A stretch of DNA of 64,000 bases from a bacterium (GCA_020440645.1 JAGRNR010000007.1:7366-71365); one strand, 5' to 3'. Shown: positions 19,753-55,667, counted from the first letter of the stretch. Numbers and translations: made by a program. Notes: generated from the letters alone by a model not told the origin.

Positions 19753-19890
19753 GACAGTCTTATTGGCAATCTCAAGATTCAAGATAATTGCTTCAAGTGA
19801 CAACCTGGCAAGTTGCTGCCTCAGCGGACAGCAGGAAGCACAGCGTTACCATGGCATCTCCGGGGTGTCAGCCTGTTCGTGAGAGGAAAA

Positions 19891-22399: not shown

Positions 22400-22461
22400 C
22401 CTGCCTTGATTTCGGGTTAGATGTCAAGTCAATTGGTTTCGGATCATCTATGGAGGATGCT

Positions 22462-26591: not shown

Positions 26592-26601
26592 GCGGTAGCA
26601 T

Positions 26602-27840: not shown

Positions 27841-27870
27841 GGTAGCCGGCGGTCCGGTACAGGTTGGAGA

Positions 27871-29100
27871 ATGCTCATCTGGGAAATCATCACGGTTGCA
27901 TTGCGTGGCATGTGGGCCAACCGCTTCCGCACGTTCCTGACGATGTTCGGCATCATCGTCGGTGTTGCCAGCGTGATCACGCTGGTGGCGGTCACCCAGG
28001 GACTGAACCAGAAGATCATTGACGACTTCGACAAGCTCGGTGCCACGCGCATGGGTGTGTACATCAACCACTGGCGTTCCAAGGTGAAGATCCCCCCGAA
28101 TGAGCAGCTGACCCTGGAGGACCGCGACAGCATTCGCCGTGAATGCGGAGCCGTTAAGCATGTCAGCGCCGTGATCGACTTCCAGGCACCGGTGCGCCAG
28201 GGCAGCAAGGAACTGACTGAAGTCAACTGCATGGGTGTCGACCCGGAGATCTTCGACATCTACAAGATCAACTTCACCGAGGGCGAGCGCTTCCCTGATG
28301 AAAGCAGCCTGCTGCGCGAGCGCGTCTGCGTGCTTGGCGCAACGACGAAGGAGAACCTGTTCTTCCTGGACCAGGCACTCGGCCGCATCATTCGCGTCGG
28401 TGGACGCAACTTCCGCGTGATCGGCGTGCTGGAAAGCACCGGCGAGGAGGACATCGACGGCCTGGTGCTGCTGCCATTCTTTACTGTGCATGAGTGGATC
28501 CCGCGCCAGAACCAGTTCCTCGGCATCCAGATGGCGGCCCAGACCCTGAGGCACGTTCCGCTGGCTGTGACCCAGGTCGAGGAAACGATCTACAAGAACC
28601 ATCCGCGCATCCCAGTGGTGGCTGACGCTGAGGAATTCGAAAAGCCGGTCCGGGTCTGGAACCTTAATGAATGGCGCGAGCGGGCCAAGGCTGAGTCCAA
28701 GCAGATCACCGTACTGCTGCTCGTGATGGGCAGCCTGTCACTGTTCATCGGTGGCATCGGATTGATGAACATCATGCTGTTCAGTGTGAAGGAGCGCACG
28801 CGCGAGATCGGACTGCGCAAGGCGCTCGGTGCCAACAGCCAGTCGATCCTGGCCCAGTTCATTGCTGAATCGATGATGATCTGCATCGGGGGAGGCCTGA
28901 TCGGAACAGGACTGAGCTTCATCCTGTGCCGCGTGATAGCCAGGCTGCCCGAGGAAGCACGATTCCCGCCTCCATTGATCACACAGGATGCGATCATCAT
29001 CGCCGTCGCCGTCACCTTCATGACCGGCGTATTCTTTGGTGTCTGGCCCGCCAGCCAGGCGGCACGCCTCAACCCGATCGAAGCCCTGCGCTACGAATAA
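27871..29100 (+). CDS. MacB/FtsX-type ABC transporter permease 2
   Basis: Same architecture as permease 1; LMNIMLFSVKERTREIGLRKALGA. Confidence 0.85.
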   Translation: MLIWEIITVALRGMWANRFRTFLTMFGIIVGVASVITLVAVTQGLNQKIIDDFDKLGATRMGVYINHWRSKVKIPPNEQLTLEDRDSIRRECGAVKHVSAVIDFQAPVRQGSKELTEVNCMGVDPEIFDIYKINFTEGERFPDESSLLRERVCVLGATTKENLFFLDQALGRIIRVGGRNFRVIGVLESTGEEDIDGLVLLPFFTVHEWIPRQNQFLGIQMAAQTLRHVPLAVTQVEETIYKNHPRIPVVADAEEFEKPVRVWNLNEWRERAKAESKQITVLLLVMGSLSLFIGGIGLMNIMLFSVKERTREIGLRKALGANSQSILAQFIAESMMICIGGGLIGTGLSFILCRVIARLPEEARFPPPLITQDAIIIAVAVTFMTGVFFGVWPASQAARLNPIEALRYE

Positions 29101-29190
29101 TCACCACAAACGAATACTTTTGCCTGCCAGTCTGCGTCCTAAGCCCCAGCCGCCGGGAAGCGGCGGGAAACCAACTCAGGACTTCAGGCC

Positions 29191-30417
29191 TTGCTCTACT
29201 GGCAGACTCTGGTGCTGGCATTCCGTGGATTGTCCAGCAACCGCTTCAGGACATTCCTGACAACGCTTGGGATCATCATCGGCGTGATGAGCGTGATCAC
29301 CATGCTGTCCATCAGCATGGGGGTGCGCGCGGACATCATCAGCCGCTTCAGTGATTTCGGCGTGACGGACATGGGCTTCTACATCAATCATGACAACAGT
29401 GCCACGCGCATTCCGCGCAGTGAGAAGCTGACACTCGCTGATGGCGAAGCGATCAAGGATCAGTGCTCTGCAGTGGACGCAATCAGTCCCTTCATCGATG
29501 GTGAGGTCAGGGTCAAATTCGGCGAGATGGATGCCGGCCAGATGACGATCTACGGAGTCGACGAGGGCTGGTTCAACATCCCGGTGAATGAGATCGAGAC
29601 CGGAGAGCCGATCAGCCGCGAGCACAACCTGCTGCGGGAGCCGGTCTGCGTGCTGGCAGTTGGCATGGTCGAGAAGCTGTTCTACAACGCTCCGCCGCTC
29701 GGGCAGATGATCCGCCTCAATGGCCGGCGCTTCCGGGTCGTCGGCATCCTCGAGCACCGCAATGCCTGGGGCCAGAATGAGTTCATCGTCGTGCCGTACT
29801 TCACCGGTGCGGAGCGGCTGGGCATGGACGGAACGCTGACCTACGATGCCTCGGCCCACAGCATGGACCACGTGAACCTCGCCGTCAGCCAGATCCGTGA
29901 GCTGGTGCACAGCCGCCATCCACGCCTGCCCGTTGACCCCGAGGCTGTGGACCGCGAGCAGCCGATCAGGATCTGGACAAGGCTGGAGTGGAAGAAGGAG
30001 GCCGAGCAGGAGATCAAGGAAATTGGCAACCTGCTGGTAACCATGGGATCGCTCGCCCTGTTCATCGGCGGCATCGGCGTGATGAACATCATGATCTTCA
30101 ATGTGCGTGAACGAACGCCCGAGATCGGCCTGCGCAAGGCGCTTGGCGCCACCAGCCGGCAGATCATGGGGCAGTTTCTCGCAGAGGCAATGGCCATGAC
30201 CATGTTTGGCGGGGCGGTGGGCAGCATGCTGGCCTTCCTGATCTGTACTGCGCTGTCAAAGCTGCCAGGTGACATCAACTTCCCTGAACCACAGGTGACG
30301 CCCCTGATCGTGTTCCTGGCCGTATCCATGAGTGTGGGGACGGGCCTGTTCTTCGGGGTCTGGCCCGCCAGCCAGGCCGCAGCCCTGCAACCGATGGAAG
30401 CATTGCGCCACGAGTGA
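29191..30417 (+). CDS. MacB/FtsX-type ABC transporter permease 3
   Basis: TTG start. Same architecture as permease 1; VMNIMIFNVRERTPEIGLRKALGA. Confidence 0.85.
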   Translation: MLYWQTLVLAFRGLSSNRFRTFLTTLGIIIGVMSVITMLSISMGVRADIISRFSDFGVTDMGFYINHDNSATRIPRSEKLTLADGEAIKDQCSAVDAISPFIDGEVRVKFGEMDAGQMTIYGVDEGWFNIPVNEIETGEPISREHNLLREPVCVLAVGMVEKLFYNAPPLGQMIRLNGRRFRVVGILEHRNAWGQNEFIVVPYFTGAERLGMDGTLTYDASAHSMDHVNLAVSQIRELVHSRHPRLPVDPEAVDREQPIRIWTRLEWKKEAEQEIKEIGNLLVTMGSLALFIGGIGVMNIMIFNVRERTPEIGLRKALGATSRQIMGQFLAEAMAMTMFGGAVGSMLAFLICTALSKLPGDINFPEPQVTPLIVFLAVSMSVGTGLFFGVWPASQAAALQPMEALRHE

Positions 30418-34697: not shown

Positions 34698-36323
34698 ATG
34701 AGGGTATTTCTGGCAACGCTGCTGGCAGCAGCGGTTCTTTGTGCAGGCAGCGCCTGGGCGGGCGATGCCTACGATGATGTCTCCACGGAGCACTGGGCAT
34801 ACAACGCGCTCGACTACCTGACCAGCCGCGGCGTGATTGAGGGTTATCCCGATGGCTTCTTCAAGGGAGACCGCACGCTGACCCGTTACGAGTTCGCGCA
34901 GGCCATCGCCCGCCTGCTGGATACGGTCGGGGAGGGCAGCCCGGAGAACATCCAGGTGATGGCTGAGTCCCTGCGCACCGAGTTCAGCGACCAGTTGGCA
35001 TTGATCAATGCGCGTACCGATGAACTTGGCAACAGCATCAATACGATGCAGGCCCAGGTCTCGGACCTCGAGGGTGCCGTTGCTGACAACACCAACCGCA
35101 TCGGCTCGCTGGAGGACAAGATCGCCGGACTGAAGCCCGGCCCCGCCTGGCGCGGTGAGTTCCGCTACCGCTGGCAGGCAGACGACCGTGCAGACAGCCA
35201 GCGCTTCCGCCAGCGCATCATGTTCAAGCTGGGCTACAACCAGAAGATCAATGAATGCGTCGAAGTCGGCTTCCGCCTGTCAACCAACAACGGCACGAAC
35301 ATCTTCACGCTGCCCTATGACCTCGGCAGCAAGGATGGCAAGTCCCCGGACATCTACCTTGACCGTGCCTACGTGAAGTACAGCCCCGGCTGGTTCGGCT
35401 ACTACAACGAGCAGACCACAACCTGCAAGGACAAGTGCGGCTGCTGCGAGGAGTGCACCACGACCAACGCCTGCAAGGCCAAGCTGGACATCTACGCCGG
35501 TATCTTCCCGCACCTGTCATACATCCCGACCGAGGGTTACATGACTGACAACTTCTACCTCGAGGGACTCGGACTGGCATACCACTTCAACGACGATTTC
35601 CAGATCACAAGCGTAGCCAGCGTGCTGGTTGAGCAGAATGGCGAGCAGTTCTTCGGGGATGACACCTACTACTTTGCCACGGAGCTGAAGCACGACGACT
35701 TCCTCGTCGAGGGCCTGAATGCCTGGGTCGGCATGTACTCCTATGACAACGTCGGCCAGCTGCCGGAGTACTGGTTCTGGGGCAATGGCCTGCTGGAGAA
35801 CGGCGGCCTATGGGACTTCAACGGCGATGGCGTGCGCACCAGCGATGACCGATTCTCCAGCAAGTACTGCATGGGCAAGGTCGGCCTGGAATACACATGG
35901 GAGTGTGTCTGGGACCGTCCGCTGAACATCTTTGGTGAATACCTGTGGGCGATTGACAGCGACGCCGCTGACAACATCGCACTTGTCAACCAGCAACTGG
36001 CCAGCCCGATCATCACTGAGCCGAGCGACGACTACGGCCTGCTGATCGGCGCGATGTGGGGCACCTGGCGCAAGGAGTGCGGCGACTGGAGCCTGTACGG
36101 CCACTACCGCCAGATGGGTGCCAACCTGATGCGCGAAGGTGCACAGTTCCCGCTGCTCAACCGCAACACGCTCAACGTGCGCTGGGACTACATGTGGGCC
36201 CCGAACTGCCTCGTCGGCGTGAACTACATCATGGACAAGATGCACAATGCCTTCGGATACGGTGTGCCGGACTTCAAGGCCGACCATGACTACTACGTTG
36301 TGGAGTGGAGCTTCCTGTTCTGA
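34698..36323 (+). CDS. OmpM-like outer-membrane porin (SLH domain, coiled coil, beta-barrel), paralogue 1
   Basis: ORF from 34347. ATG 34698 is preferred (AAGAGGA SD; signal peptide MRVFLATLLAAAVLCAGSAWA). SLH motif DHWAYNALDYLTSRGVIEGYPDGFFKGDRTLTRYEFAQAIARLL. Heptad region ...QVSDLEGAVADNTNRIGSLEDKIAGL. Barrel part ends ...YYVVEWSFLF (terminal Phe). Confidence 0.8.
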   Translation: MRVFLATLLAAAVLCAGSAWAGDAYDDVSTEHWAYNALDYLTSRGVIEGYPDGFFKGDRTLTRYEFAQAIARLLDTVGEGSPENIQVMAESLRTEFSDQLALINARTDELGNSINTMQAQVSDLEGAVADNTNRIGSLEDKIAGLKPGPAWRGEFRYRWQADDRADSQRFRQRIMFKLGYNQKINECVEVGFRLSTNNGTNIFTLPYDLGSKDGKSPDIYLDRAYVKYSPGWFGYYNEQTTTCKDKCGCCEECTTTNACKAKLDIYAGIFPHLSYIPTEGYMTDNFYLEGLGLAYHFNDDFQITSVASVLVEQNGEQFFGDDTYYFATELKHDDFLVEGLNAWVGMYSYDNVGQLPEYWFWGNGLLENGGLWDFNGDGVRTSDDRFSSKYCMGKVGLEYTWECVWDRPLNIFGEYLWAIDSDAADNIALVNQQLASPIITEPSDDYGLLIGAMWGTWRKECGDWSLYGHYRQMGANLMREGAQFPLLNRNTLNVRWDYMWAPNCLVGVNYIMDKMHNAFGYGVPDFKADHDYYVVEWSFLF

Positions 36324-43811: not shown

Positions 43812-45242
43812 CTAGCTGCTGATTGAATCCAGCTGGTCACTGAATTCGACTCGCAGGCACTCGGCAATCTGTACTTCATATGGATATGGATTTTCCTGAT
43901 CACTCAAAATGTCCAACAGTCGAGCGATTGCCTGGGCGAATTCATAGGGGGACAGGATCCTGCTGCGGTCGTAGAAGCCAGCCGGGTACCCTTCCAGGGT
44001 TCCACTGTCAATGAAGAACTCTACCGCGTCGTAGGCCCAGTGCTCGGGGGGGACATCGGCGGATGCGCCGGTACGCATTGATCCCTGGATCTCGTTGTTC
44101 ATGCCCAGGTTGGATATCTCCAGGCTGACGAAATGGTCTGTGTGCCCCATACTGACAATTTGGTCTTTGAATTCATTCATGCAGATGTGCAGAAGCATCT
44201 TTTGTGAGTCAGAGCCATTTTCAAAAATAGAATATCCAAAGACTAGAGCTGCAGAAGCAAATTCATACCTTGTCAGCAATCGGTCTTCCCTGCTGAAGAA
44301 ATCACCTGGTTGGACAACTTTCCATTCGACGTTCGGGTCGTTGACCAAGTAGTCGAATAGGGCGTAAGCCCAATGATCCCGTGGAACTTCGTCATAGGCA
44401 GAGTGCCGTTGCTGGACTTCAGGTGCTGTTGCTAATTCAAACTGCTCAGGGTCTGGAAAAAATTCGAAGGAGATCGAAGTGTTCCTGTGATGGTTAATGC
44501 TGTTGTAAGCAAATCTCCATTGTCGTAAGTTATCCAGATTGACGGTTCTTGGAATCCATTCCTGGATCACGGGATTGCTTTGCGCTGGCACTACACCGTT
44601 GAAAACTTCCAGCTGGTCTTCAATCTCAGTATGAACGATGTCCAGCAGTAATCTGTCAACCACTGGCTGGCCCTCAATGTCTGATTCAGTAATCATCTTT
44701 GAAATGTCCTGAGCTGTCATCGGCAGGAAGCTGTCTCTGAACTGGTTCGGAATATCAAGTCTGCCGACAAAGTTCAAGTAGTCAATGATCATGGCAACAA
44801 TCTGAGTATTGGCCGAATCGCAATCTATCTTGACACTTGGTTTCAATCTCAAATCAGAAACAACCAGTTCCTGAGGGTAACTCAGGTCATTGCCATCTGC
44901 ATCCTGCCTGATTCCTCCCATCCCACAACCCCATTGGTCTGAGTACTCCAAACGCATGACCTCCATGAGCACAAAGTCACCGAGGGGATAGTTGCGATCA
45001 AGCCCGTCTATTGCAATAGCGGTGGGCAAGACAAATTCATACCGGGTCTGGGGCTGGCCTGCCTCACTGAAGCGGATTGCCTCAGCCTGTTCCGGGTGCA
45101 CTAGCAGTCTGTCCTGCCAGTATTCCAGAACCTTGTAGCTCCAATGATCCAGCGGAACCTCGTCATAGGCGCTGCCAGCGATGGCAGGCTTGCAGCACAT
45201 AAGCAAGAAGAGCAGTGTCGCGATTGGATTTGCGAAATTCAT
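43812..45242 (-). CDS. Secreted protein made of three SLH-like modules, no barrel
   Basis: Signal peptide MNFANPIATLLFLLMCCKPAIAGSAY. SLH-like cores DHWSYKVLEYW, DHWAYALFDYLV...LLTRYEFASAAL and EHWAYDAVEFFIDSGTLEGYPAGFYDRSRILSPYEFAQAIARLLD. ATGA overlap with the upstream gene. Confidence 0.75.
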   Translation of the reverse strand: MNFANPIATLLFLLMCCKPAIAGSAYDEVPLDHWSYKVLEYWQDRLLVHPEQAEAIRFSEAGQPQTRYEFVLPTAIAIDGLDRNYPLGDFVLMEVMRLEYSDQWGCGMGGIRQDADGNDLSYPQELVVSDLRLKPSVKIDCDSANTQIVAMIIDYLNFVGRLDIPNQFRDSFLPMTAQDISKMITESDIEGQPVVDRLLLDIVHTEIEDQLEVFNGVVPAQSNPVIQEWIPRTVNLDNLRQWRFAYNSINHHRNTSISFEFFPDPEQFELATAPEVQQRHSAYDEVPRDHWAYALFDYLVNDPNVEWKVVQPGDFFSREDRLLTRYEFASAALVFGYSIFENGSDSQKMLLHICMNEFKDQIVSMGHTDHFVSLEISNLGMNNEIQGSMRTGASADVPPEHWAYDAVEFFIDSGTLEGYPAGFYDRSRILSPYEFAQAIARLLDILSDQENPYPYEVQIAECLRVEFSDQLDSISS

Positions 45243-46543
45243 TGCTGTCCCTCGCTGTCAGACATCAACTCACTGAGTCGTTGGATTCCGTATCCACTGC
45301 CTGGAAAGTTCACATCAGGCAGCAGGTCTTCGAATTCATGCCGCAGTGCCTCAGCCATGATCAGAATATCCGTCGGGGAGTTGTCATCCAGGCTGCCGCA
45401 TAGACATCTGACGGCTACCGCGAGATCGTGTCTGTTGATTTCGCCTGCTATTCGGAAGATGCCTCGTGGGTACTCTGCCAGGTAGCCTCGCATCTGTAGG
45501 TACTCAAGACTGTTGAAGGCCCAGTGGTCAGGTACCACTGCCGAACTGGGGTCAGCCTTGCGACTTGCGGCCCAGCCCTCAAGCTCTGAGAAATCCAGTC
45601 TGACCTGGTGAGGCATGCCATTCTGCGCGTTTATCTCTTTATTGAACTCTTGATGGAGCAGCAGCATGCCAAGTGAATAGGGCTCATCAATCTGGAGGAC
45701 ATTGTCACTAATAATCCTCATTACGGCTTGAGCAAGTTCGTATCTGGTGAGTGAACCACTGGCAAAGAATTTGTGCGGATATCCTTCCAGCAAGCCGCGT
45801 TCGGCATAAGAGTTCAGCATGCTGTATGCCCAGTGATCCTGCGGAACATCGTCATATGCTGAAGTTGGCACTTCGGTCGCTTCCGTCACTTCGACCATAT
45901 CCGGCTGCATACATTCAACGATCTCGAATGGGCAATCAGCAATCCAGTCTACATCTGCCAACTCGTGATGCAGGGTAGTTGCCATGATTACCTCATCCAC
46001 TGCAGGTTGCTCTGGTAAATCGAGGAATAACTGGTTGACCACTACGGCTGCATTCCGTCTGCTCAATGACTTCCAATTAGTGAAGTAGTTGGCAGGGAAG
46101 TTCTGCAGGTAGCCTTCAGTCTGCAGGTAATCGAATGCATTCAATACCCAGTGATCCGAGCTGAGCCAACCCGTCTCCGGTGCAGACTCTGCTGGGACTG
46201 GATCTCCTGAGGGATCCTCAGAAAGGTTTACTATTCCACTAAAGCAAATCAGGTCACTGAATTCTGCCCTCAGGGTTTCAACCATGATTGGCACATTCTC
46301 TTCCTCTGTGTCTGCAGTTGCCATCTGAAGTTGCAGGATGGCGAACTGGAATTCGTCACGCTTCAGGACCTGTGATCCATCAAACACCTTGGCAGGATAG
46401 TTCTGCAGGTATCCGTGGTGTTGCAGGTAGTCCAGGGCATTATAGGCCCAGTGCTCTGTGGAAACTTCGTTATAGGCACTGCCCGCCAATGCAGGGGTGC
46501 AAAGCAGCAGGATCGCAGCAAGCGTTGTCAGCCTAAGCCGCAT
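45239..46543 (-). CDS. Secreted protein made of four SLH-like modules, no barrel
   Basis: ORF to 46606. ATG 46543 is preferred (GGAGAAAG SD; signal MRLRLTTLAAILLLCTPALAGSAY). Four copies of (D/E)HW(A/V)(Y/F/L)N...Y(L)Q...GY(L)...(Y/F)P, each followed by an L(R/H)xEFxD segment. Confidence 0.75.
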   Translation of the reverse strand: MRLRLTTLAAILLLCTPALAGSAYNEVSTEHWAYNALDYLQHHGYLQNYPAKVFDGSQVLKRDEFQFAILQLQMATADTEEENVPIMVETLRAEFSDLICFSGIVNLSEDPSGDPVPAESAPETGWLSSDHWVLNAFDYLQTEGYLQNFPANYFTNWKSLSRRNAAVVVNQLFLDLPEQPAVDEVIMATTLHHELADVDWIADCPFEIVECMQPDMVEVTEATEVPTSAYDDVPQDHWAYSMLNSYAERGLLEGYPHKFFASGSLTRYELAQAVMRIISDNVLQIDEPYSLGMLLLHQEFNKEINAQNGMPHQVRLDFSELEGWAASRKADPSSAVVPDHWAFNSLEYLQMRGYLAEYPRGIFRIAGEINRHDLAVAVRCLCGSLDDNSPTDILIMAEALRHEFEDLLPDVNFPGSGYGIQRLSELMSDSEGQQ

Positions 46544-46662
46544 GTCTTTCTCCAGTTTCCCTCGCACGGGGGTTCCGGGCACCCATGCGGGATTGCTCTT
46601 CCTCAATCAGCTAATCGCTGAGTGGGAAGGGGGAGTTAAACGCATGCTGCTGTCTGCGACTG

Positions 46663-47842: not shown

Positions 47843-47876
47843 AAATGAAACGGGCGCCCCATGGAGGGACGCCCGT
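47843..47876 (-). terminator. Terminator-like hairpin after the tetraheme cytochrome gene
   Basis: On the minus strand, a 7-bp GC stem (ACGGGCG...CGCCCGT) is followed by TTCATTT. Confidence 0.55.
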
Positions 47877-47911: not shown

Positions 47912-48421
47912 TTACTTCTTCGGCTTGGGCTTGTGGTCCGCCAGTGCCTTGACGGCATCGGCGTACTTGAACTCCTTGTAGTGCGGGGAGTCCTTGTTGT
48001 GGCAGGTCTTGCAGTTCGCCTCCGTGGGCTTGGTCATCGTGTTGCGCTTCTTCTCAACATCGTTGAGCGGGGCGGCAAGGTGGTCCTTGGCGGGGCCATG
48101 GCAGGCCTCGCACTGCACGTTGACGAGCTTGGGGGTCTTCTCGATGCTGACGAAGCCGCCGGGCTTGCCAAAGCCGGTCACATGGCAGGGGATGCAGCTG
48201 TCCTTCTTGTCCTTGCTGGCCTGCAGTGTGTCCCAGGTCTTGGCCATCGGCCACTTCTTCCATGCTGCGACCTGGTCCTTGTGGCACATGCCGCACTTCT
48301 TCTCGTTGTCACCGACATACTCGTTGGCATCGGCACCGCTTGCCTGCTCTGCGCTGAAGGCGCCCCAGGCGAACATCGCCACGATGAACACAGCGATTAC
48401 CCAGCCATACTTCCTGAACAT
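47912..48421 (-). CDS. Tetraheme c-type cytochrome with N-terminal hydrophobic segment (signal peptide or anchor)
   Basis: ORF to 48445. ATG 48421 is preferred (AAGGAGG SD 6 nt upstream). Four CxxCH: CGMCH, CIPCH, CEACH, CKTCH. Lys-rich tail HKPKPKK. Confidence 0.9.
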   Translation of the reverse strand: MFRKYGWVIAVFIVAMFAWGAFSAEQASGADANEYVGDNEKKCGMCHKDQVAAWKKWPMAKTWDTLQASKDKKDSCIPCHVTGFGKPGGFVSIEKTPKLVNVQCEACHGPAKDHLAAPLNDVEKKRNTMTKPTEANCKTCHNKDSPHYKEFKYADAVKALADHKPKPKK

Positions 48422-48526
48422 GCTACACCTCCTTGGTGCTTGCAACTCTCCTGGAATCCTTGGATTCCAGCCTCTTAGGCTCCATGAGATATTCGATATG
48501 TCTGCCTTACTTGATAATACCCCAGA

Positions 48527-50233
48527 TCAGAAGCTAATCCTGTAATTTACCGCAACTGAGACTGCATCTGATTCAAGGCCCGGGTAGTTGTCATACAGCC
48601 TGCGGTACCAGTCCAGGCGCAGGCCAAGCGGCCCAAGGCGCTTGAAGCGGACCTCAGCCCCGGCACTGGTCTGGGTATAGTTCTCTGCCCCGCTGCCGTC
48701 GCTCATGGCGAAGTTCAGCGAGTAGTCATGGTCCTCAAGCTGCTGCCCGTAGGTGGCGGCGTAGGTCTTGTCGTCGGTGCTGTACTCGTCGTCAACGCCC
48801 GGCATGTCGAGCTCGGAGCGGCTGTCACGCAGGGACAGGGCGAACTGGCTGCAGCTGTCGATGCGGTGCATCCAGACTCCCTCGGCATAGGTCAGGTTGG
48901 TCTGGCTGTCACGGCCACCATTGCGGGATTCCTGGCCGTACATGTTGAAGTCAACGGAGTTGTGATTGTCCACCGTCCAGGACAGGCCGTGGGTGCGGGA
49001 CAGCTGCTTGTCGAAGAACAGGCTGGTGCTGCCGACACTGACGAGCTCAGTGCCCGGGGTACTGCCCGACTCGTAGTCGATGTGCGTACGGAACTTCAGG
49101 CGGTCAGAGAGGTTCTGCTTCATGTCGAACCAGACCGTGTCGTACTCCGGTGCGAGGATCGTCACCGCGGGAGCGACCTGGGCCGGTGTCACCACGGAGG
49201 AGCCACGCAGCAGGTTGAACACCGAGCTGTCCTGCATGTCCAGCTTGGCGTAGTCAACCTGGCGCAGCTTGTAGCCGGCCTCGTAGCTGTTGCCACAGCC
49301 GGGGTACCATGCCGCCGAGAAGCCATACTCGCTGGAGCTCTGCACGTGGCTGCTGACGATGTTGTCATCGGCGGCCTCGCTGCTGCTGTACTCCGCATTG
49401 AAGGACCAGTCGCAGCTCGGGTCGTAGCGCATGCCCAGTGTCAGGTCCGCGCTGGAGAACTCCGGGTCGGGCTGGTCATCGTACTGGTACTGCTTGTAGT
49501 TGATCCGGCCGTAGGCCTTCAGCTCATCGCTCAGCCTGGCGTCCAGCTTGACGCGGGTATGGTCAATGCTGCCGGAGGCGCCGGGCAGGGTGGTGTCGAT
49601 CGTGGTGGCACGCTGGGTGACCTGGGCCATCGTGTCGATGCCGATGATGTCCAGGTTCCAGCGGTAGCCGAGGCGCTCCACCTTGAGGTCATGCAGCGGG
49701 CTGGCCGTGTCATGGTTGAGCTCGATGCGCTCGTAGTTGAGCGCCATGTTGTCAAGCTCACGGTGGTGGATCCGCAAGCCGTACTGGTCATGTGACCAGT
49801 CGTAGGGCACCAGTGCCGGCTCCGCACCGAATGCGTTCCAGGCGCGGCCGCTGATCAGGGTGCTGTCACCCTGCAGCACGAGCGGCCAGCTCGTCAGGCG
49901 GCCCCAGCCGCGTCCGCTGTCGCTGCTGACATCCTGCCAGCGGGCCTCGAAGCGGTTGAGCACGCAGCCCATGTCGACGCTGTTGTAGCGGCCGTTGGTG
50001 TACCAGTCCTCCGGGTAGAGCCCGTACTGGTTGAAGGAGTCCTCGTTGTCATTCACTTCCGTGCTGGTGCCGCCGATCTCGACGAAGTTGCCAAGACCGT
50101 CCTCGGCCCAGAACTCACAGCAGTCAGCGCAGCCGGCGTTGCAGCCGGTGCAGGCATCGCCCGCAAGGGCCACGCCGCTGAGCATGACAAGCATGGAGAA
50201 GACGAGGAGGGCAGTTAACATTCCGTTGCGCAT
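48527..50233 (-). CDS. Outer-membrane beta-barrel protein with N-terminal Cys cluster (candidate MtrB/PioB-like sheath)
   Basis: AGGAGG SD. Signal peptide MRNGMLTALLVFSMLVMLSGVALA, then GDACTGCNAGCADCCEFW. Alternating-residue strand patterns run throughout. C-terminus SVAVNYRISF. Starts 13 nt after the 12-heme gene. Confidence 0.7.
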   Translation of the reverse strand: MRNGMLTALLVFSMLVMLSGVALAGDACTGCNAGCADCCEFWAEDGLGNFVEIGGTSTEVNDNEDSFNQYGLYPEDWYTNGRYNSVDMGCVLNRFEARWQDVSSDSGRGWGRLTSWPLVLQGDSTLISGRAWNAFGAEPALVPYDWSHDQYGLRIHHRELDNMALNYERIELNHDTASPLHDLKVERLGYRWNLDIIGIDTMAQVTQRATTIDTTLPGASGSIDHTRVKLDARLSDELKAYGRINYKQYQYDDQPDPEFSSADLTLGMRYDPSCDWSFNAEYSSSEAADDNIVSSHVQSSSEYGFSAAWYPGCGNSYEAGYKLRQVDYAKLDMQDSSVFNLLRGSSVVTPAQVAPAVTILAPEYDTVWFDMKQNLSDRLKFRTHIDYESGSTPGTELVSVGSTSLFFDKQLSRTHGLSWTVDNHNSVDFNMYGQESRNGGRDSQTNLTYAEGVWMHRIDSCSQFALSLRDSRSELDMPGVDDEYSTDDKTYAATYGQQLEDHDYSLNFAMSDGSGAENYTQTSAGAEVRFKRLGPLGLRLDWYRRLYDNYPGLESDAVSVAVNYRISF

Positions 50234-50246
50234 CGCTTGCTACCTC

Positions 50247-51455
50247 CTAGTTCCCGAAGAAGAAGAAATCAGTGTTGGAACCGTGGTGGTCGGAATGGCA
50301 TCCCGAGGTCCAGCAGTTCTGTGCGGGGAAGTGGTTGGCACGGTCAGTATGGCATTCCATGCAGGTACCCCGTCCGGAGAAGTTCAGCAGGTCAGGGTTG
50401 CTGCTGCCGTGTGCACTGTGGCAGGTGAAGCAGCCGTTGCCCATTGCCGGATCGTATCCCGCGTGCTCGAAGATGAACGGGCCCTGCTTGTCAGCGTGGC
50501 ATTCGAAGCAGAGGTCGTCCTTCACCTGCTTGAGCATCTCGTGCCCCTCGCCGCCGTGCGGGTTGTGGCAATCAATGCACATCAGGCCCATTCTCGGGTC
50601 CTCGTTGTCAAGCGGATGGTGGCTGAACTTGGCGAAGTCCAGGCGGGTCGACTCGTGGCAGGTCAGGCACATTGAATTGGGGGTCTTGCGCAGGTTGTGC
50701 TTGTTGGTCTGCATGTGCGGGTCATGGCACTCGATGCAGGACATCCCTTCCTTCACATGGCGGGTGCCCTTGTAGTCCGGCACATAGGTGTCGGACTTGT
50801 GGCACTCAAGGCATGTGTCGTCAATTTCCTTGGAGCTGGCCATGCTGAACACACCGATTCCGGCGCGGCGGCCCCAGTGGTTGCTGCCCGGTCCATGGCA
50901 GCTTTCGCAGCCACGCTCGCTGATCGGGCGGGTACCGTGGTCGGTCAGGCTGTGCATGGACTTCTGCCATTCACGGCGATGGCCCTGGTGGCAGCTCAGG
51001 CAGGTCTCAGTACCGACGTACTGCGCGCCTTCCGTGGAGGCGGCAAAGCCGGGGTAGTCCTCCTGGCGGCTGGGGTTGAGGAAGGGATCGAGGTTGCTGC
51101 CGTGCATGTCGCTGTGGCAATTGCTCGTCCAGCAGGTAAGTGCAGGGTAGTGCTCGGACTTGTCCTGGTGGCAATTGAGGCAGAGTGAGCGGGTTTCACT
51201 TACGAGCCCGCCATGGCCCCCGACGCCAGTGGTCTGGTGGCACGTGTCGCACTTGCCCTCGAAGGCCGGCGCATGCGGGAAGCTGACTTCCTGAGCCGCG
51301 CTTCCATGACACATTGCACAGTCAACACTGCTGACATCCTCCGGAGCTTCCATTCCCTCAAGGGAATCAAAGAACTGCGCCTGTCCAACGTAAGTCCAGC
51401 CCAGCACTCCGACAGCTATCAGCACGATGGTCATCAATGACCTTCTCGCAGCCAT
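50247..51455 (-). CDS. Multiheme c-type cytochrome, 12 CxxCH + 2 CxxxxCH
   Basis: GGAGGA SD and an N-terminal hydrophobic segment. CxxCH motifs: CAMCH, CDTCH, CLNCH, CLSCH, CESCH, CLECH, CIECH, CLTCH, CIDCH, CFECH, CFTCH, CMECH. Also CWTSNCH (51114-51134) and CWTSGCH (50295-50315). Confidence 0.92.
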   Translation of the reverse strand: MAARRSLMTIVLIAVGVLGWTYVGQAQFFDSLEGMEAPEDVSSVDCAMCHGSAAQEVSFPHAPAFEGKCDTCHQTTGVGGHGGLVSETRSLCLNCHQDKSEHYPALTCWTSNCHSDMHGSNLDPFLNPSRQEDYPGFAASTEGAQYVGTETCLSCHQGHRREWQKSMHSLTDHGTRPISERGCESCHGPGSNHWGRRAGIGVFSMASSKEIDDTCLECHKSDTYVPDYKGTRHVKEGMSCIECHDPHMQTNKHNLRKTPNSMCLTCHESTRLDFAKFSHHPLDNEDPRMGLMCIDCHNPHGGEGHEMLKQVKDDLCFECHADKQGPFIFEHAGYDPAMGNGCFTCHSAHGSSNPDLLNFSGRGTCMECHTDRANHFPAQNCWTSGCHSDHHGSNTDFFFFGN

Positions 51456-51491
51456 GCTGATCCTCCAATATTCTCTCTTCCTCTACCCTGT

Positions 51492-51508
51492 GGAAAACAC
51501 TGTTTTCC
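51492..51508 (-). promoter_or_regulatory. Perfect 7-3-7 palindrome (candidate operator) upstream of the 12-heme cytochrome gene
   Basis: GGAAAAC-ACT-GTTTTCC lies 37-53 nt upstream of ATG 51455, just downstream of an AT-rich TATA-like stretch (51531-51545). Confidence 0.45.
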
Positions 51509-51611
51509 GGCACCAAGTTTAGCACAATCCTACTATATATCTATGATATCGGGCATCGGAATTGTGTCTTTAGTCAGACTTCATCAAGCCAGTTGGAAAG
51601 GGGATCCAGGC

Positions 51612-51641
51612 AAAAAAAAGGGCGCCCATTGCGGGCGCCCT
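51612..51641 (-). terminator. Strong rho-independent terminator after the 9-heme lipoprotein gene
   Basis: On the minus strand, the AGGGCGCCC-GCAAT-GGGCGCCCT hairpin is followed by T8. Confidence 0.85.
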
Positions 51642-51660
51642 CCTTGTTGGTGTACTGCTG

Positions 51661-53652
51661 TTACGGCAGAGCGTTGAGTTCGTTGACCTTGTTGATGGCG
51701 GACTGCAGCAGGCCGCGGGAGTACGCCGGGTTGTGGACACCCTTACTGTTGTCCTCGCGGACGTACTCATAGTTCCACCAGGCCTGGCGGTACTGGTCGC
51801 CGATCGGGTCATTGAGCGGCGGGCCGTCGGTGCTCGGCGGATCTGAGCTGGAGGGCTTGTTGTTCAGTTCGAACACACCGGCATCCTCAGTCTTCCACTC
51901 GGCGGGCCAGATTGTCTCAAACTCGAGCAGCATGGCCAGCGTACCGTTGATGAACTCCTCCTTGTAGGCTTCCATCTCCTCGCTGGTGGCGAAGGTGTGG
52001 CAGACGTTGCAGGATTCAATCTTCGGGGCGAAGCTGTGGCCGACGATGGCCGGGTTCTCGAAGTCCTCGAACTCCTTGGTGTACATGTGGCAGGTGATGC
52101 ACTTCTCCTCATTCCAGGAGTTGTGCGGGTGGGACTTGTCATACTCGTAGCCATCGAACTCCCAACCGCCGACACCGTAGATCATCGGAGCCTGGCTGTT
52201 GTGGTGGAATCCGCGGCCACCCTTGGCAACGGTGTTCTCCATGTCACCACGGTCACGACGGCCATTGTGGCAGGCAATGCAGGTGTTGGCCTTGCCGGCA
52301 TTCACTTCGGTGTCGTCGAAGGGGATGATCATCGTTGCGGTCGGGTCGACACGCAGCTGGTTCTCGAAACCGTTTCCGTGCGGGTCGTGGCAGGTGGCGC
52401 AGCTGACGTGCGTACCCATTTCAAGGTCCTCAGCCGGCGGGTCCTCGCCGTTGATCTGGATCCGGACGAACCATTCACCGTTGTGGCACTGCACGCAGCT
52501 GCCACCGGTGGCCTGGTGGGAATCCAGGGCAAAGGTGCCGTGGCCGGAGGTCTGCCACTCGTCGAACGTCGGGTGGTGCTCCTCAGTATGGCAACGGCCG
52601 CAGGAGTCGGTCGGGTCGAAGGATGCGGGCAGCGGACCGTTGGCCGGGTGGCCGGTACCGGAGCCGTGGCAGCTTTCGCACTGGACGTTGGCAAACTGCG
52701 GGGTCAGGTCGTAACTGATGTAACCGCCCTCGCCGTAACCGACGGTGTGGCACTCACGGCAGCTCTCGAGCCTGCCGCGGCCGATCTGCTGCATCATTTC
52801 CTCGATGTGGGCGTGACCGGTGGTCTCCCACTGGTCGTACACGTCAGAGTGGCAGTTGGAGCAACGCTCGGCACCACTGAAGTCGAAGGATGTCGGCATC
52901 GCGGCAAGGGTTACCGTGGCGGTCTGGGACGTGACTGCGCTCACCATTGACGTACCGGTCGCCTTGCCATCGTTGGCAATTGCGGTGATCGTATGGCTGC
53001 CGGCCTCGTCATATGACCATGTGGCCTTGGAAGTGCCGTTCTCGACGGTGATGTCGGAGAAGTTGTCCTGGCCGGTGTCATCCTGCCAGACGAAGCTGAG
53101 CGTGTCGCCATCGGAGTCGGATGCGGTCACCGAGAAGATGATCTTCTGTCCGGCGACCGGGGAGCTGACGTCCTTCTGGATGCCATTCTGGTCGAAGGCG
53201 GGGGGATCATTCGGTCCCGGGGGTTCCGGTGCCTGTGCCACCGTGGTGGAAGTGCTGGCAGTAGCTGACAGCAGTTCCGGGTCGTACGCGATCACTGAGA
53301 TCGTGTAGGTTCCGGCTTCCTCAGTGCTCCAGAAGACGGATGAGCCCGTGCCGTCGAAGGTACCGGCGGCGGCATTCCCGTCATCCCAGCTGAAGGTCAG
53401 TGCACTGCCTTCGGGATCACTGGCGGATACGGAGAACTGCACAACCTGCGATGTCTCAGGACTGAGGTTGTTGGCAGCGATCGTATTTCCGATGATCACC
53501 GGAGCCTTGTTCACGCCGCCTCCGTCATCAGGGTTTCCCCCGCCGCCGGAAAGCGAGCTGGCGCAGCTGCCAAGCGCGAGGAGGCTGGCAGCTGTGATTC
53601 CCAATGCCTGATGGAGAATTCCTCTCCCGGTTGAAACATTGCTAGTCATCAT
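51661..53652 (-). CDS. Nonaheme c-type cytochrome lipoprotein with two PKD/Ig-like domains
   Basis: ORF to 53700. ATG 53652 or 53649 is preferred (AAGGAGG SD). Lipobox-like LLALGSC. Repeats FSVSASDPEGSALTFSWDDG and FSVTASDSDGDTLSFVWQDD. Nine CxxCH: CSNCH, CRECH, CESCH, CGRCH, CVQCH, CATCH, CIACH, CITCH, CNVCH. Confidence 0.9.
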   Translation of the reverse strand: MMTSNVSTGRGILHQALGITAASLLALGSCASSLSGGGGNPDDGGGVNKAPVIIGNTIAANNLSPETSQVVQFSVSASDPEGSALTFSWDDGNAAAGTFDGTGSSVFWSTEEAGTYTISVIAYDPELLSATASTSTTVAQAPEPPGPNDPPAFDQNGIQKDVSSPVAGQKIIFSVTASDSDGDTLSFVWQDDTGQDNFSDITVENGTSKATWSYDEAGSHTITAIANDGKATGTSMVSAVTSQTATVTLAAMPTSFDFSGAERCSNCHSDVYDQWETTGHAHIEEMMQQIGRGRLESCRECHTVGYGEGGYISYDLTPQFANVQCESCHGSGTGHPANGPLPASFDPTDSCGRCHTEEHHPTFDEWQTSGHGTFALDSHQATGGSCVQCHNGEWFVRIQINGEDPPAEDLEMGTHVSCATCHDPHGNGFENQLRVDPTATMIIPFDDTEVNAGKANTCIACHNGRRDRGDMENTVAKGGRGFHHNSQAPMIYGVGGWEFDGYEYDKSHPHNSWNEEKCITCHMYTKEFEDFENPAIVGHSFAPKIESCNVCHTFATSEEMEAYKEEFINGTLAMLLEFETIWPAEWKTEDAGVFELNNKPSSSDPPSTDGPPLNDPIGDQYRQAWWNYEYVREDNSKGVHNPAYSRGLLQSAINKVNELNALP

Positions 53653-54011: not shown

Positions 54012-55667
54012 CTAGAACTTGAACACCCAGTCCACCTGCACGATCTGGCGGTCGTCCAGGCTGCTGGGGATCTGGAATCCATACGCGTTGTGCATCTTCT
54101 GCAGGATGTAGGTGATGCCGAGGGTGCAGTTCGGGGCCCAGATGTATGCCCAGTGCCACTCGAAGCTGTTGCGGTTCGCACCACCGGTGTCTGAGTCGCC
54201 GAGGCCGTGGACGATCGCGTTGCCGCCGATCTCCTTGTAGCGGGCGAAGGTGAACCAGTCACCGCACTCCTTGGGCTTGTCGCCCCACTGCGCACCGGCA
54301 ACCCAGCCGCTGTCGTCGCTGGTCTCGTAGATGATCGGGGAGGCCAGGCCCTGGTTGACGATCGCGATGTTGTCCTCCGCGTCGCTGTCACAGGACATCA
54401 TGTACTCACCGTAGATCTTGAACGGCTTGTCGTCCCAGGCACAGTCCCAGGTGTACTGCAGGCCGGCCTTGTAGACACTGAAGTTGCTGTTGAAGCGGTC
54501 GAGGCCGTTGACGGCCCCGTCGCCATTGAAATCGAACACGCTGCCGTCAGCCAGCACGAGGCCGTTGCCGGTGAAGTACTCATCCAGCAGCTGGTTCTCG
54601 AGTTTCCAGCCGTAGCTGCCGATCCAGGCATCAAGGCCATCGAACAGGAAGTCGTCATGGCGCAGCTCGGTGGCGAAGAAGTAGGTGTCGTCATCGAAGT
54701 AGTCGCTGCCGTTCTTCTCGACGAAAACGCTGGCGACACTGGTCAGCTGGAAGTCCTGGTTGAAGTGGTAAACGAAACCGAGACCCTGCAGGTTCACGTC
54801 GCCATCCAGCACCATCTCATTCGGGTCGGTGAGGATGTTCGGGTAGATACCGGCATAGATGTCGATCTTGCTCTTGCACTCGCACTTCAGGTCCTCGCAC
54901 TTGGCACATTCGTTGCAGCCGCCGCAGCCACCGCAGTTCGGCTTCGGCTTCTCGCAATCCTGGTACCAGCCGAACCAGCCCGGGCTGTACTTGACATAGG
55001 CCTCGTGCAGGAAGATGTCCGCCGTACGGCCCTGGTTGCCAAGCGTGTGGTTGCCGGAGGTGGCATCGTTGCCTGTCTGGGTCTGGAACTGCCAGGCCAG
55101 CATCACGCAGTCGTTGATCTGCTTGCTGTAGCCCAGTTTGAAACGGATGCGCTGGCGGAACCGGTTGCGGTTCGCATAGTCCTGGAACTCCCAGCGGTAA
55201 CGCAGCTCACCCTTCCAGGCCGGGCCGGGCTTGAGGTCCTTGACCTTGCCCTCGAGGTCGCCGATCCGGTTGGTGTTGTCCGCCACACTACCTTCAAGAT
55301 CCGAGATGGTCGAGTTCATGTCGTTGACCTGGTTGCCCAGGGCATCAACCCGCCCGCCGAGGCTGGCAAGCTGGTCAGAGAATTCCGCGCGAAGGGTTTC
55401 GGCCATGATGTTGATGTCTTCGGGCGAACCCTCACCAACAGTGTCGAGCAGACGGGCGATCGCCTGGGCGAACTCGTAACGCGTCAGCGTACGGTCACCC
55501 TTGAAGAACCCGTCCGGATAACCTTCCAGCACACCGCGGTGCGTCAGGTAATCCAGGGCGTTGTAGGCCCAGTGGTCGGTGGACACGTCGTCATAGGCGG
55601 AACCCGCCCAGGCAACGGAGCATCCAAGGACCATGCAGGCCAGCAGGGAGAGTGCAAACCTCTTCAT
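54012..55667 (-). CDS. OmpM-like outer-membrane porin (SLH, coiled coil, beta-barrel), paralogue 2
   Basis: ORF to 55760. ATG 55667 is preferred (signal peptide MKRFALSLLACMVLGCSVAWA). DHWAYNALDYLTHRGVLEGYPDGFFKGDRTLTRYEFAQAIARLL. Ends ...VQVDWVFKF. Colinear with paralogue 1, including a Cys-rich insert. Confidence 0.8.
   Translation of the reverse strand: MKRFALSLLACMVLGCSVAWAGSAYDDVSTDHWAYNALDYLTHRGVLEGYPDGFFKGDRTLTRYEFAQAIARLLDTVGEGSPEDINIMAETLRAEFSDQLASLGGRVDALGNQVNDMNSTISDLEGSVADNTNRIGDLEGKVKDLKPGPAWKGELRYRWEFQDYANRNRFRQRIRFKLGYSKQINDCVMLAWQFQTQTGNDATSGNHTLGNQGRTADIFLHEAYVKYSPGWFGWYQDCEKPKPNCGGCGGCNECAKCEDLKCECKSKIDIYAGIYPNILTDPNEMVLDGDVNLQGLGFVYHFNQDFQLTSVASVFVEKNGSDYFDDDTYFFATELRHDDFLFDGLDAWIGSYGWKLENQLLDEYFTGNGLVLADGSVFDFNGDGAVNGLDRFNSNFSVYKAGLQYTWDCAWDDKPFKIYGEYMMSCDSDAEDNIAIVNQGLASPIIYETSDDSGWVAGAQWGDKPKECGDWFTFARYKEIGGNAIVHGLGDSDTGGANRNSFEWHWAYIWAPNCTLGITYILQKMHNAYGFQIPSSLDDRQIVQVDWVFKF

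Follow-up and report, generated by a model that had tools for sequence, protein, structure and literature searches.

The stretch of DNA analysed here, hereafter the window, covers 64 kb from an uncultured UBP7 bacterium of wastewater/activated sludge, represented by the closed 4.1-Mb metagenome-assembled genome (MAG) CP060262.1 (isolate HK-STAS-UBP7_A-1). Between positions 47912 and 53652, the window carries a module of four genes, (i) to (iv), all on the minus strand, that probably (at an estimated probability of about 0.62) encodes an Mtr-type porin-cytochrome conduit moving electrons across the outer membrane, most likely outward. This assignment is well supported by the family membership of the cytochromes (ii) and (i), the predicted fold of the barrel (iii) and the conserved adjacency of the genes. 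We infer, beyond this, that (ii) is threaded through (iii) and that (i) is exposed at the cell surface, as well as what (iv) and the adjoining gene (v) do and in which direction electrons flow. An outer-membrane porin-cytochrome conduit had been proposed in a first-pass annotation of the window, and family membership, predicted fold and adjacency now make such a conduit very likely.

All four minus-strand open reading frames are present, and the first-pass description of their heme motifs, of the 13-nucleotide (nt) gap between (ii) and (iii), of the lipobox in (i) and of the NYRISF terminus and Cys cluster in (iii) is exact. In total, the module contains 25 CxxCH and 2 CxxxxCH motifs, which are distributed over genes (i), (ii), (iii) and (iv) as 9, 12+2, 0 and 4. 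Residue shuffles of each module protein yield a mean of 0.02-0.15 motifs and a maximum of 3 (compared to 12 observed), and the heme-motif density of the module is far above chance. In the rest of the window, one other stop-to-stop segment of at least 100 amino acids (aa) contains CxxCH, as a single motif.

Components of the module

Gene (ii) encodes a cytochrome of 402 aa whose 12 CxxCH sites are complemented by two CxxxxCH sites, CWTSNCH and CWTSGCH. The region aa 148-395 matches the NCBIfam model TIGR03508 (DmsE/MtrA) with 199.5 bits (cutoff 192.2) over profile positions 1-256 of 258, and the orthologs in the loci L005 and L007 obtain 195.6 and 192.2 bits. In a phmmer comparison, aa 145-373 align with residues 60-286 of chain A of the PDB entry 6R2Q (E=2.8e-33), a 333-aa chain with an uninformative depositor label that we take to be MtrA. 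On the basis of these matches, gene (ii) is assigned to the DmsE/MtrA family. The entry 6R2Q represents the Mtr complex of S. baltica (PMC7198977). With 402 aa and 14 sites, gene (ii) does not match the usual DmsE/MtrA format of exactly ten CxxCH in ~300-350 aa. The core at aa 148-395 contains nine CxxCH and the terminal CxxxxCH, while an N-terminal unit (aa 33-125; three CxxCH and one CxxxxCH) duplicates the C-terminal four-site unit (aa 303-398) with 42% identity (E=3e-24), and both copies close with CWTSxCH...HGSN. Judged by sequence, gene (ii) is a variant architecture on the family core, in which a second copy of a 4-site unit has been added to an MtrA core of 10 sites. The count of 12+2, initially taken as a non-Mtr feature, does differ from ten and yet resolves into these two parts. 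The ~402-aa type is represented by about 32 clusters, several of which the Joint Genome Institute (JGI) names 'DmsE family decaheme'. At one orthologous locus (L006, 3609-4844), the 14-site cytochrome gene is intact in the DNA but absent from the public gene call, which has two short reverse-strand open reading frames in its place. In the Mtr structure, the N-terminus of MtrA juts into the periplasm and A10 is the sole heme presented to MtrC (PMC7198977). By analogy, the added four-site unit would be located at the periplasmic end and lengthen the wire inward, and the last CxxxxCH site would be equivalent to heme A10 at the extracellular mouth.

Gene (iii) encodes a protein of 568 aa with a signal peptide, no heme motif and the C-terminus NYRISF, in which Phe is the terminal residue. 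Sequence searches recover few relatives of this protein: seven clusters were obtained in a word-indexed search, and an HMMER profile run exhaustively against 1.84 billion representatives retrieved 19 relatives, no large family and no MtrB/PioB. The profile produced spurious SUMO matches alone among PDB sequences, where MtrB was not retrieved. No NCBIfam model matches gene (iii), and Pfam gives generic barrel matches below threshold only. A comparison with the Pfam hidden Markov model MtrB_PioB (PF11854), suggested in the first-pass annotation as a check on the barrel, produced no match at E<=0.1, and the same result was obtained for P0008, P0015, P0016, P0017, P0025, P0026 and the barrels of L017 and L018.

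Structure prediction places gene (iii) closer to MtrB. Using AlphaFold2 (AF2), an alignment of seven barrel sequences led to a model with a mean predicted local distance difference test (pLDDT) score of 26.9, which was discarded, and an alignment of 19 sequences, to which distant members had been added, was used instead. The resulting model has a mean pLDDT of 79.8, a predicted template modelling (pTM) score of 0.65 and 26 strands, of which strands 1-4 comprise 5-9 residues and the other 22 comprise 10-17, with a helix at residues 64-70 between strands 1 and 2. For MtrB, the same layout is described, with 26 strands of which the first four are shorter and a helical segment in the loop that joins strands 1 and 2 (PMC7198977). 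Among PDB structures, Foldseek ranks MtrB (6r2q_B) first with E=6.5e-9 and template modelling (TM) scores of 0.52 (TMq) and 0.47 (TMt), followed by LptD (E=1.4e-6, TM 0.32; LptD barrels in general ~0.3) and by OprC and BtuB (TM ~0.35-0.38). LptD barrels consist of 26 strands, and the TonB-dependent-type barrels OprC and BtuB of 22. The strand count, a further check raised in the first-pass annotation, is thus MtrB-like in the prediction and not that of an ordinary small porin. Assignments of the barrel as a TonB-dependent receptor or as LptD were rejected given the TM scores of 0.3-0.38, the lack of a Plug or LptD family match and the unfitting neighbours. A Cyc2-type fused cytochrome-porin was also rejected for the window barrel, which has no heme domain; a fused protein of this kind occurs in the distant P0026 only.

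A profile bridge to the MtrB/PioB superfamily is provided by the barrel family A5 from Armatimonadota, which adjoins a related MtrA-type gene (L016). In hhalign, the window barrel family A2 and A5 are aligned end to end with a probability of 89% (E=2.2e-6), and the A5 members P0150 and P0151 marginally exceed the cutoff of Pfam MtrB_PioB (23.5 and 24.1 bits compared to 23) over ~70 residues. The homology search with the bridge barrel yielded five proteins, enough for a profile and too few for a robust MtrB link. Given this bridge, gene (iii) may be a very distant offshoot of the MtrB/PioB superfamily that lies beyond the reach of current models. At the sequence level it constitutes a new family, and its predicted fold is MtrB-like.

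The Cys cluster of gene (iii) comprises residues 28, 31, 35, 38 and 39 (nt 50117-50152) and was rejected as a heme site, as no His follows. The seven close sequences all keep C28 and C31, and in the wider family one Cys (P0016), none (P0017, P0025) or a fused cytochrome c (P0026) is found. For MtrB of S. oneidensis, the N-terminal C42 is required (PMC12175506). The parallel drawn earlier between the N-terminal CxxC and MtrB holds for the close subfamily and not for the wider barrel family.

Conserved adjacency provides an additional line of evidence. Fourteen distinct loci with upstream sequence were compared (the window, L004-L008, L010, L011, L013, L014, L015, L017, L019 and L020), and in 14/14 an MtrA-type cytochrome with a CxxxxCH...HGSN end is found directly upstream of the barrel, at barrel identities from 78% down to 18-19%; the first-pass annotation had asked for a survey of this kind. 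The cytochrome and barrel genes of the remote L018 and of the bridge L016 are arranged alike, and the genes flanking the pair vary from locus to locus. Next to the distant barrels of L013, L015, L014, L017 and L020 (30%, 19%, 18% for a fragment, 33% and 38% identity) and to that of L018, the MtrA-type partner lies 6-53 nt upstream. The partners possess 10 heme sites in L013, L015 and L018 and 14 in L017, and those of L014 and L020 are cut at the contig end. Window-type loci show 50-78% barrel identity: the five-gene order and the 9, 12+2, 0 and 4 motifs are identical in the window, L004, L005, L006, L007 and L010, with varying flanking genes, and every gene retained in L008, L011 and L019, which are cut by contig ends, matches the window type. 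A metagenome scan with the narrow barrel alignment A1 added only two more loci.

In most loci with available flanks, the pair is joined by a lipobox multiheme cytochrome whose type varies, i.e. the 9-site OcwA type in window-type loci and L015, 17 sites in L013, and 24 and 30 sites in L017. The order nonaheme lipoprotein, MtrA-type cytochrome and barrel is thereby found again in the very distant L015. Outer cytochromes of Shewanella are likewise interchangeable (PMC12175506). Since the pairing is constant and the outer cytochrome variable, the conserved core consists of the MtrA-type wire and this barrel, joined by exchangeable outer cytochromes. The two large lipoprotein cytochromes of L017 (12760-17757; 978 aa with 24 CxxCH and 648 aa with 29 CxxCH and 1 CxxxxCH) are located 3' of the 14-site cytochrome/barrel pair, in the place held in the window by the OcwA-type protein. 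In P0026 (L015, 8001-10028), an N-terminal monoheme cytochrome c domain (CGVCH) is fused to the barrel via an acidic linker; the protein resembles Cyc2 fusions, but its barrel is much larger. A CcsA/ResC-type cytochrome c assembly gene (794-1834, minus strand) is the divergent neighbour of the MtrA-type gene in L013 and may serve the CxxxxCH site as a dedicated heme lyase.

The outer cytochrome of the window, gene (i), contains a signal peptide, the lipobox L-G-S-C, two PKD/immunoglobulin (Ig)-like domains (~aa 60-250) and a heme domain (aa ~250-663) with nine CxxCH sites, and is matched by the Pfam families PKD, Cytochrome_C554 and Cytochrom_C552. The profile of its heme domain, A4, aligns with OcwA (PDB 6I5B; E=2.9e-24) in four stretches, which run from position 6 to 410 of the profile and from residue 12 to 497 of the chain. 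Further matches are 6QVM ('Multiheme cytochrome cf', E=8.6e-19), which we take to be OmhA of Carboxydothermus ferrireducens, NrfA (~1e-6) and, distantly, MccA. The entry 6I5B is OcwA of Thermincola potens, a nonaheme cell-surface terminal reductase with c554-like and NrfA-like parts and with His-His motifs above the open-coordination hemes 2 and 5, which is credited with 'catalytic versatility' (PMC6703420). All nine CxxCH sites are invariant in A4, and orthologs keep nine, including the PKD-less 420-aa lipoprotein of L015. Of the two HH motifs, the first (H110-H111 of A4) is invariant and aligned with 'SHH' of OcwA; the second (FHHNSQ) occurs in the window protein only, and orthologs present HA or HP. 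Gene (i), with nine sites and not ten, has no match to NCBIfam TIGR03507 (MtrC/OmcA), and the Pfam models Mtrc-MtrF_II-IV show local motif-level matches only. By these comparisons, gene (i) classifies as OcwA/OmhA-type, not MtrC-type. It is proposed as the cell-surface terminal cytochrome, and the lipobox and two PKD spacers would be compatible with surface display. The initial view of a conduit assembled from non-Mtr-looking parts is therefore accurate for gene (i), incorrect for gene (ii), which exceeds the TIGR03508 cutoff and aligns with MtrA, and largely incorrect for gene (iii) at fold level.

Gene (iv) contains four CxxCH and seven His in total, and therefore a maximum of three of its four hemes can be bis-His coordinated. 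It matches Pfam Cytochrome_C554 (E=5e-19) and PDB 1BVB (E=1.3e-10), and an AxA-type cleavage site before xNEYVGDN is conserved among its orthologs. The gene lies 3' of the barrel in 9/9 window-type loci, and its product is proposed as a soluble periplasmic carrier that would feed (ii). The adjoining gene (v) matches the Pfam families Zn_Ribbon_1, DZR and TPR, with the zinc ribbon at the N-terminus. It accompanies every 14-site locus: in L017 it immediately precedes the 14-site cytochrome, and in L001, L004, L005, L006, L007 and L008 it lies downstream. It was not seen in the 10-site locus L015; an inner-membrane docking or assembly factor is proposed.

Table 1. Features of the module and SLH-porins in the window (positions count from the first nucleotide of the window; AF2, AlphaFold2; SLH, S-layer homology)
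Feature	Position	Strand	Basis
Gene (i), OcwA/OmhA-type nonaheme lipoprotein	51661..53652	-	motifs, Pfam, profile vs PDB
Intrinsic terminator after gene (i)	51612..51641	-	hairpin + T8
Weak sigma-70-like promoter match AAGACA-16-TATCAT, 5' of gene (ii)	51543..51570	-	consensus match
Gene (ii), 402-aa secreted cytochrome, 14 heme sites	50247..51455	-	TIGR03508, phmmer
Gene (iii), 568-aa outer-membrane barrel (predicted)	48527..50233	-	AF2, Foldseek, hhalign
Gene (iv), 169-aa secreted tetraheme c554-type cytochrome	47912..48421	-	motifs, Pfam, PDB match
Hairpin + T-run terminator 3' of gene (iv), ends (ii)-(iii)-(iv) unit	47850..47876	-	
Gene (v), 382-aa Zn-ribbon/TPR protein, one hydrophobic helix	46663..47811	-	Pfam
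SLH-porin, Pfam SLH + Porin_5	54012-55667	-	
Second SLH-porin	34704-36323	+	

The terminator between (i) and (ii) reported in the first-pass annotation is present: on the coding strand, a stem GGGCGCCC, the loop GCAAT and a second stem GGGCGCCC are followed by T8. The terminator scan itself returned the GGGCGCCC palindrome on the plus strand alone, and the minus-strand reading was made from the sequence. Gene (i) starts with an ATG pair (53652/53649) behind AAGGAGG, for which gene callers use 662 aa, and the ATG of gene (ii) at 51455 is preceded by a GGAGGA ribosome-binding site. The promoter-like element listed upstream of gene (ii) is a consensus match only, and the number of sigma-70-like matches in the region equals the shuffle expectation. 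At the (ii)/(iii) junction, the sequence TAG-GAGG-N8-ATG makes the ribosome-binding site of (iii) overlap the stop codon of (ii). The terminators after (i) and (iv) together with this junction therefore define the units (i) alone, (ii)-(iii)-(iv) and the next gene, which agrees with the at least two transcription units initially predicted. Orthologous loci also keep (i) and (ii) apart, by 190-445 nt.

Proposed electron path and alternative readings

In the proposed path, an inner-membrane quinol oxidase would feed electrons in and the tetraheme c554-type protein (iv) would ferry them through the periplasm. The 14-site MtrA-family cytochrome (ii), threaded inside the predicted 26-strand MtrB-like barrel (iii), would represent wire and sheath, and the OcwA-type lipoprotein (i), spaced from the cell surface by its two PKD domains, would hand the electrons to an extracellular acceptor. 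Candidate acceptors are Fe(III)/Mn(IV) minerals, humic substances or an electrode.

Several points weigh against this path. The window barrel is not matched by PF11854, the first ~90 residues of its model (residues 16-91, with strand 1 and the helix) are of low confidence, and its link to MtrB consists of a 19-sequence AF2 model with a TM score of ~0.5 and a two-step profile chain barely above the Pfam threshold. Gene (i), as a separate transcription unit, might face the periplasm, and the study of OcwA reportedly found reduction of nitrite and hydroxylamine in vitro. Within the 64-kb window, no inner-membrane quinol dehydrogenase is encoded. The organism is known as a MAG alone and the module, here, from genes alone, and the direction of electron flow is not readable from sequence.

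This last point leaves some weight for an unlikely, though not negligible, alternative in which the same conduit runs inward or both ways, as MtoAB and PioAB do, so that electrons donated outside the cell by Fe(II), by minerals, by reduced humics or by a partner cell would enter the periplasm. No direction is set by the sequence, and the catalase-peroxidase and Fur genes in the vicinity of the related loci L005 and L007 hint at contact with oxygen. Reducers, however, typically carry a multiheme lipoprotein cytochrome on the outside, as in the Mtr and Pcc systems, and Pfam and NCBIfam scans revealed no HiPIP, cupredoxin or Cyc2-type partner in the module. The MtrA/MtrB-type architecture as such serves reducers and oxidisers (PMC6831781; 10.1101/2024.09.20.614158), whereas the nearest characterised relative of gene (i) is a terminal reductase (PMC6703420).

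A third reading, that the cytochromes work in the periplasm as a chain reducing a soluble N- or S-oxyanion, with gene (i) as an NrfA/MccA-like enzyme and the barrel as an ordinary substrate porin, is improbable. Gene (i) contains neither a CxxCK nor a CX15CH catalytic motif, even though its heme domain shows a relationship to NrfA (E~1e-6) and a distant one to MccA, and the HH placed over an open-coordination heme in OcwA is aligned and invariant (H110-H111). The predicted barrel has 26 MtrB-like strands instead of the 16-18 of a porin, and the cytochrome-barrel pair is retained where unrelated lipoproteins of 17 to 30 sites replace the outer cytochrome; in one relative (P0026), a cytochrome c is even fused to the barrel. 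The c554-like gene (iv) does belong to a family from nitrogen metabolism, but gene (ii) is an MtrA-family protein, and characterised members of this family sit in barrels (PMC7198977). The first-pass annotation had named soluble oxyanion reductases as the finding that would speak against a conduit; nothing points the cytochromes in this direction. OcwA-type proteins, though, can reportedly reduce nitrite in vitro.

Least probable of all is a minimal MtrAB-type conduit of (ii) and (iii) alone, with (i), (iv) and the TPR protein as neighbours in separate roles. In its favour, gene (i) has its own terminator and promoter region, and L017 has other cytochromes in place of (i) and (iv). The exposed edge of A10 also indicates that MtrAB by itself could act on extracellular substrates, and soluble Fe(III) chelates are still reduced when mtrC is knocked out (PMC7198977). 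Against it, the window, L004, L005, L006, L007 and L010 share the five-gene order across differing flanks at 50-78% barrel identity, and the nonaheme lipoprotein, MtrA-type cytochrome and barrel recur in this order in the very distant L015.

Envelope and other genes of the window

The envelope context of the proposed outward conduit can be deduced from the two SLH-porins of the window. The N-terminus of the porin directly upstream of the module matches the PDB entries 8BYS (E=8e-22) and SlpA 7ZGX (E=1e-14), the match being limited to the SLH/stalk part. The 8BYS chain is labelled 'S-layer homology domain-containing protein' and is presumably the OmpM of Veillonella. Because of these matches, an OmpM-type tether is supported, and the two SLH-porins argue for a host with an OmpM-type (SLH-tethered) outer membrane, in line with the flanking context given in the first-pass annotation and with the Pfam SLH assignment. 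It is hypothesized that the four-site duplication and gene (v) are an adaptation to this envelope: a 14-heme chain of ~110 Å (extrapolated from 80 Å per 10 hemes) would pass through the peptidoglycan-stalk zone and dock at the inner membrane, resulting in a near-continuous wire to the OcwA-type reductase. In evolutionary terms, a 'Gram-negative' MtrAB core and a 'Gram-positive' OcwA would have been spliced in a Terrabacteria-like envelope. This scenario is doubtful at present.

Both SLH-porins carry a Cys-rich insert within the barrel part (CGGCGGCNECAKCEDLKCEC in 54012-55667 and CKDKCGCCEECTTTNAC in 34704-36323), which is unusual for porins. The position of an SLH-porin directly upstream of the module is shared by the closest relatives L004 and L010 only. 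Directly 3' of gene (v), two minus-strand genes (45239-46606 and 43812-45242) contain repeated SLH-like segments and no barrel, and L005 and L007 have an unannotated protein of 554-588 aa at the corresponding position. Four plus-strand paralogs (18691-19752, 19813-21018, 21335-22399 and 22450-23484) encode proteins of ~345-400 aa, large for pilins or pseudopilins. Three of the four start with the prepilin-type N-methylation motif FTLIELLVVVVIIGILVAIALPNF, which is absent from the 19813 open reading frame as called, and Pfam N_methyl was confirmed in both paralogs scanned (2 of 4). In Shewanella, type II secretion is required for the arrival of MtrC at the cell surface (PMC12175506), and the prepilin-like paralogs may be relevant for this reason. 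Additional genes include a 1014-aa GH101 endo-alpha-N-acetylgalactosaminidase (7696-10740, minus strand), a member of a mucin-type O-glycan hydrolase family and an uncommon enzyme for an activated-sludge MAG, and a plus-strand group (25143-30417) in which a HlyD-type membrane-fusion protein precedes three paralogous permease-like genes of ~410 aa, judged by eye from their sequence to be MacB-type ABC permeases.

Comparison with known systems

Experimentally characterised trans-outer-membrane conduits come from a few Proteobacteria and from Geobacter. Divergent porin-cytochrome clusters are also emerging from other phyla, and no concept is overturned by the module described here. Its new features are a barrel family missed by current annotation models, a 14-site wire lengthened via internal duplication, an OcwA-type surface cytochrome, previously known from monoderm Firmicutes, and an uncultured host lineage (UBP7 and relatives) with OmpM-type porins, an envelope for which no conduit is described in the searchable literature. 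As models miss the barrel, annotation pipelines see only an orphan 'DmsE-family cytochrome'. If confirmed, the module would offer a concrete system for how electrons cross an SLH-tethered envelope, and the barrel profile together with the CWTSGCH...HGSN terminal site would constitute a marker set for hidden conduits in metagenomes. No paper joining OmpM, extracellular electron transfer and multiheme was found in the searchable literature, and the papers naming OcwA together with MtrB comprise reviews, one perspective and one survey of cytochromes, the last of which, in its available part, has OcwA in the reference list only.

The clusters EET1-4 of peat Acidobacteriota and Verrucomicrobiota (bioRxiv 10.64898/2026.05.27.727921) share with the module MAG-predicted porins, 'MtrA-like' and 'OwcA-like' cytochromes and a low identity to Mtr and Omc proteins. 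With such sequence-divergent clusters reported, the general pattern is already recognised. Compared by description, and within the available part of that source, EET1-4 belong to other phyla and contain 8-13 hemes, with no 14-site MtrA, UBP7/4484-113 lineage or OmpM-type envelope. The Geobacter Pcc (OmaB-OmbB-OmcB) and Ext systems (PMC6148476) likewise join a barrel to a multiheme cytochrome of the periplasm, with 8-12 hemes, and to outer lipoprotein cytochromes that vary from cluster to cluster, whereas the periplasmic component here is of the MtrA family and not of the OmaB or ExtA families. No module protein reaches the cutoff of the Ext/Pcc NCBIfam models (ExtKL 22.8 bits compared to 250; GSU2203 family 187 compared to 325). 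PioA possesses a long heme-free N-terminal extension, in contrast to the four-site heme unit that extends gene (ii). With MtoAB and PioAB, the module shares the minimal two-component core of an MtrA-family decaheme beside a large barrel; their barrels are recognised by Pfam MtrB_PioB, however, and are normally found without an outer lipoprotein cytochrome. Gene (i) resembles OcwA and 6QVM in its nine CxxCH, the near-full alignment to OcwA, the HH motif and the C-terminal NrfA-like helical region. While OcwA functions in a monoderm with neither an outer membrane nor a barrel partner, gene (i) has a lipobox and two PKD domains and is found beside an MtrA/MtrB-type core in a diderm.

From MtrCAB of Shewanella (6R2Q; PMC7198977), the module differs in several features. 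Its wire has 14 sites instead of 10, with the last four-site unit duplicated onto the predicted periplasmic end, and the site equivalent to A10 would be a CxxxxCH. Its barrel shares 9% identity with MtrB, is shorter by ~100 aa and escapes the Pfam and NCBIfam MtrB models. Its outer cytochrome is not the staggered-cross decaheme of MtrC/OmcA, and gene (i) is transcribed separately. Common to both systems are the order of outer lipoprotein cytochrome, periplasmic multiheme cytochrome and barrel, an N-terminal CxxC (in the close barrel subfamily only), the membership of gene (ii) in the DmsE/MtrA family, and a barrel that is predicted to have 26 strands, the same start of short strands and helix, and MtrB as its best structural match.

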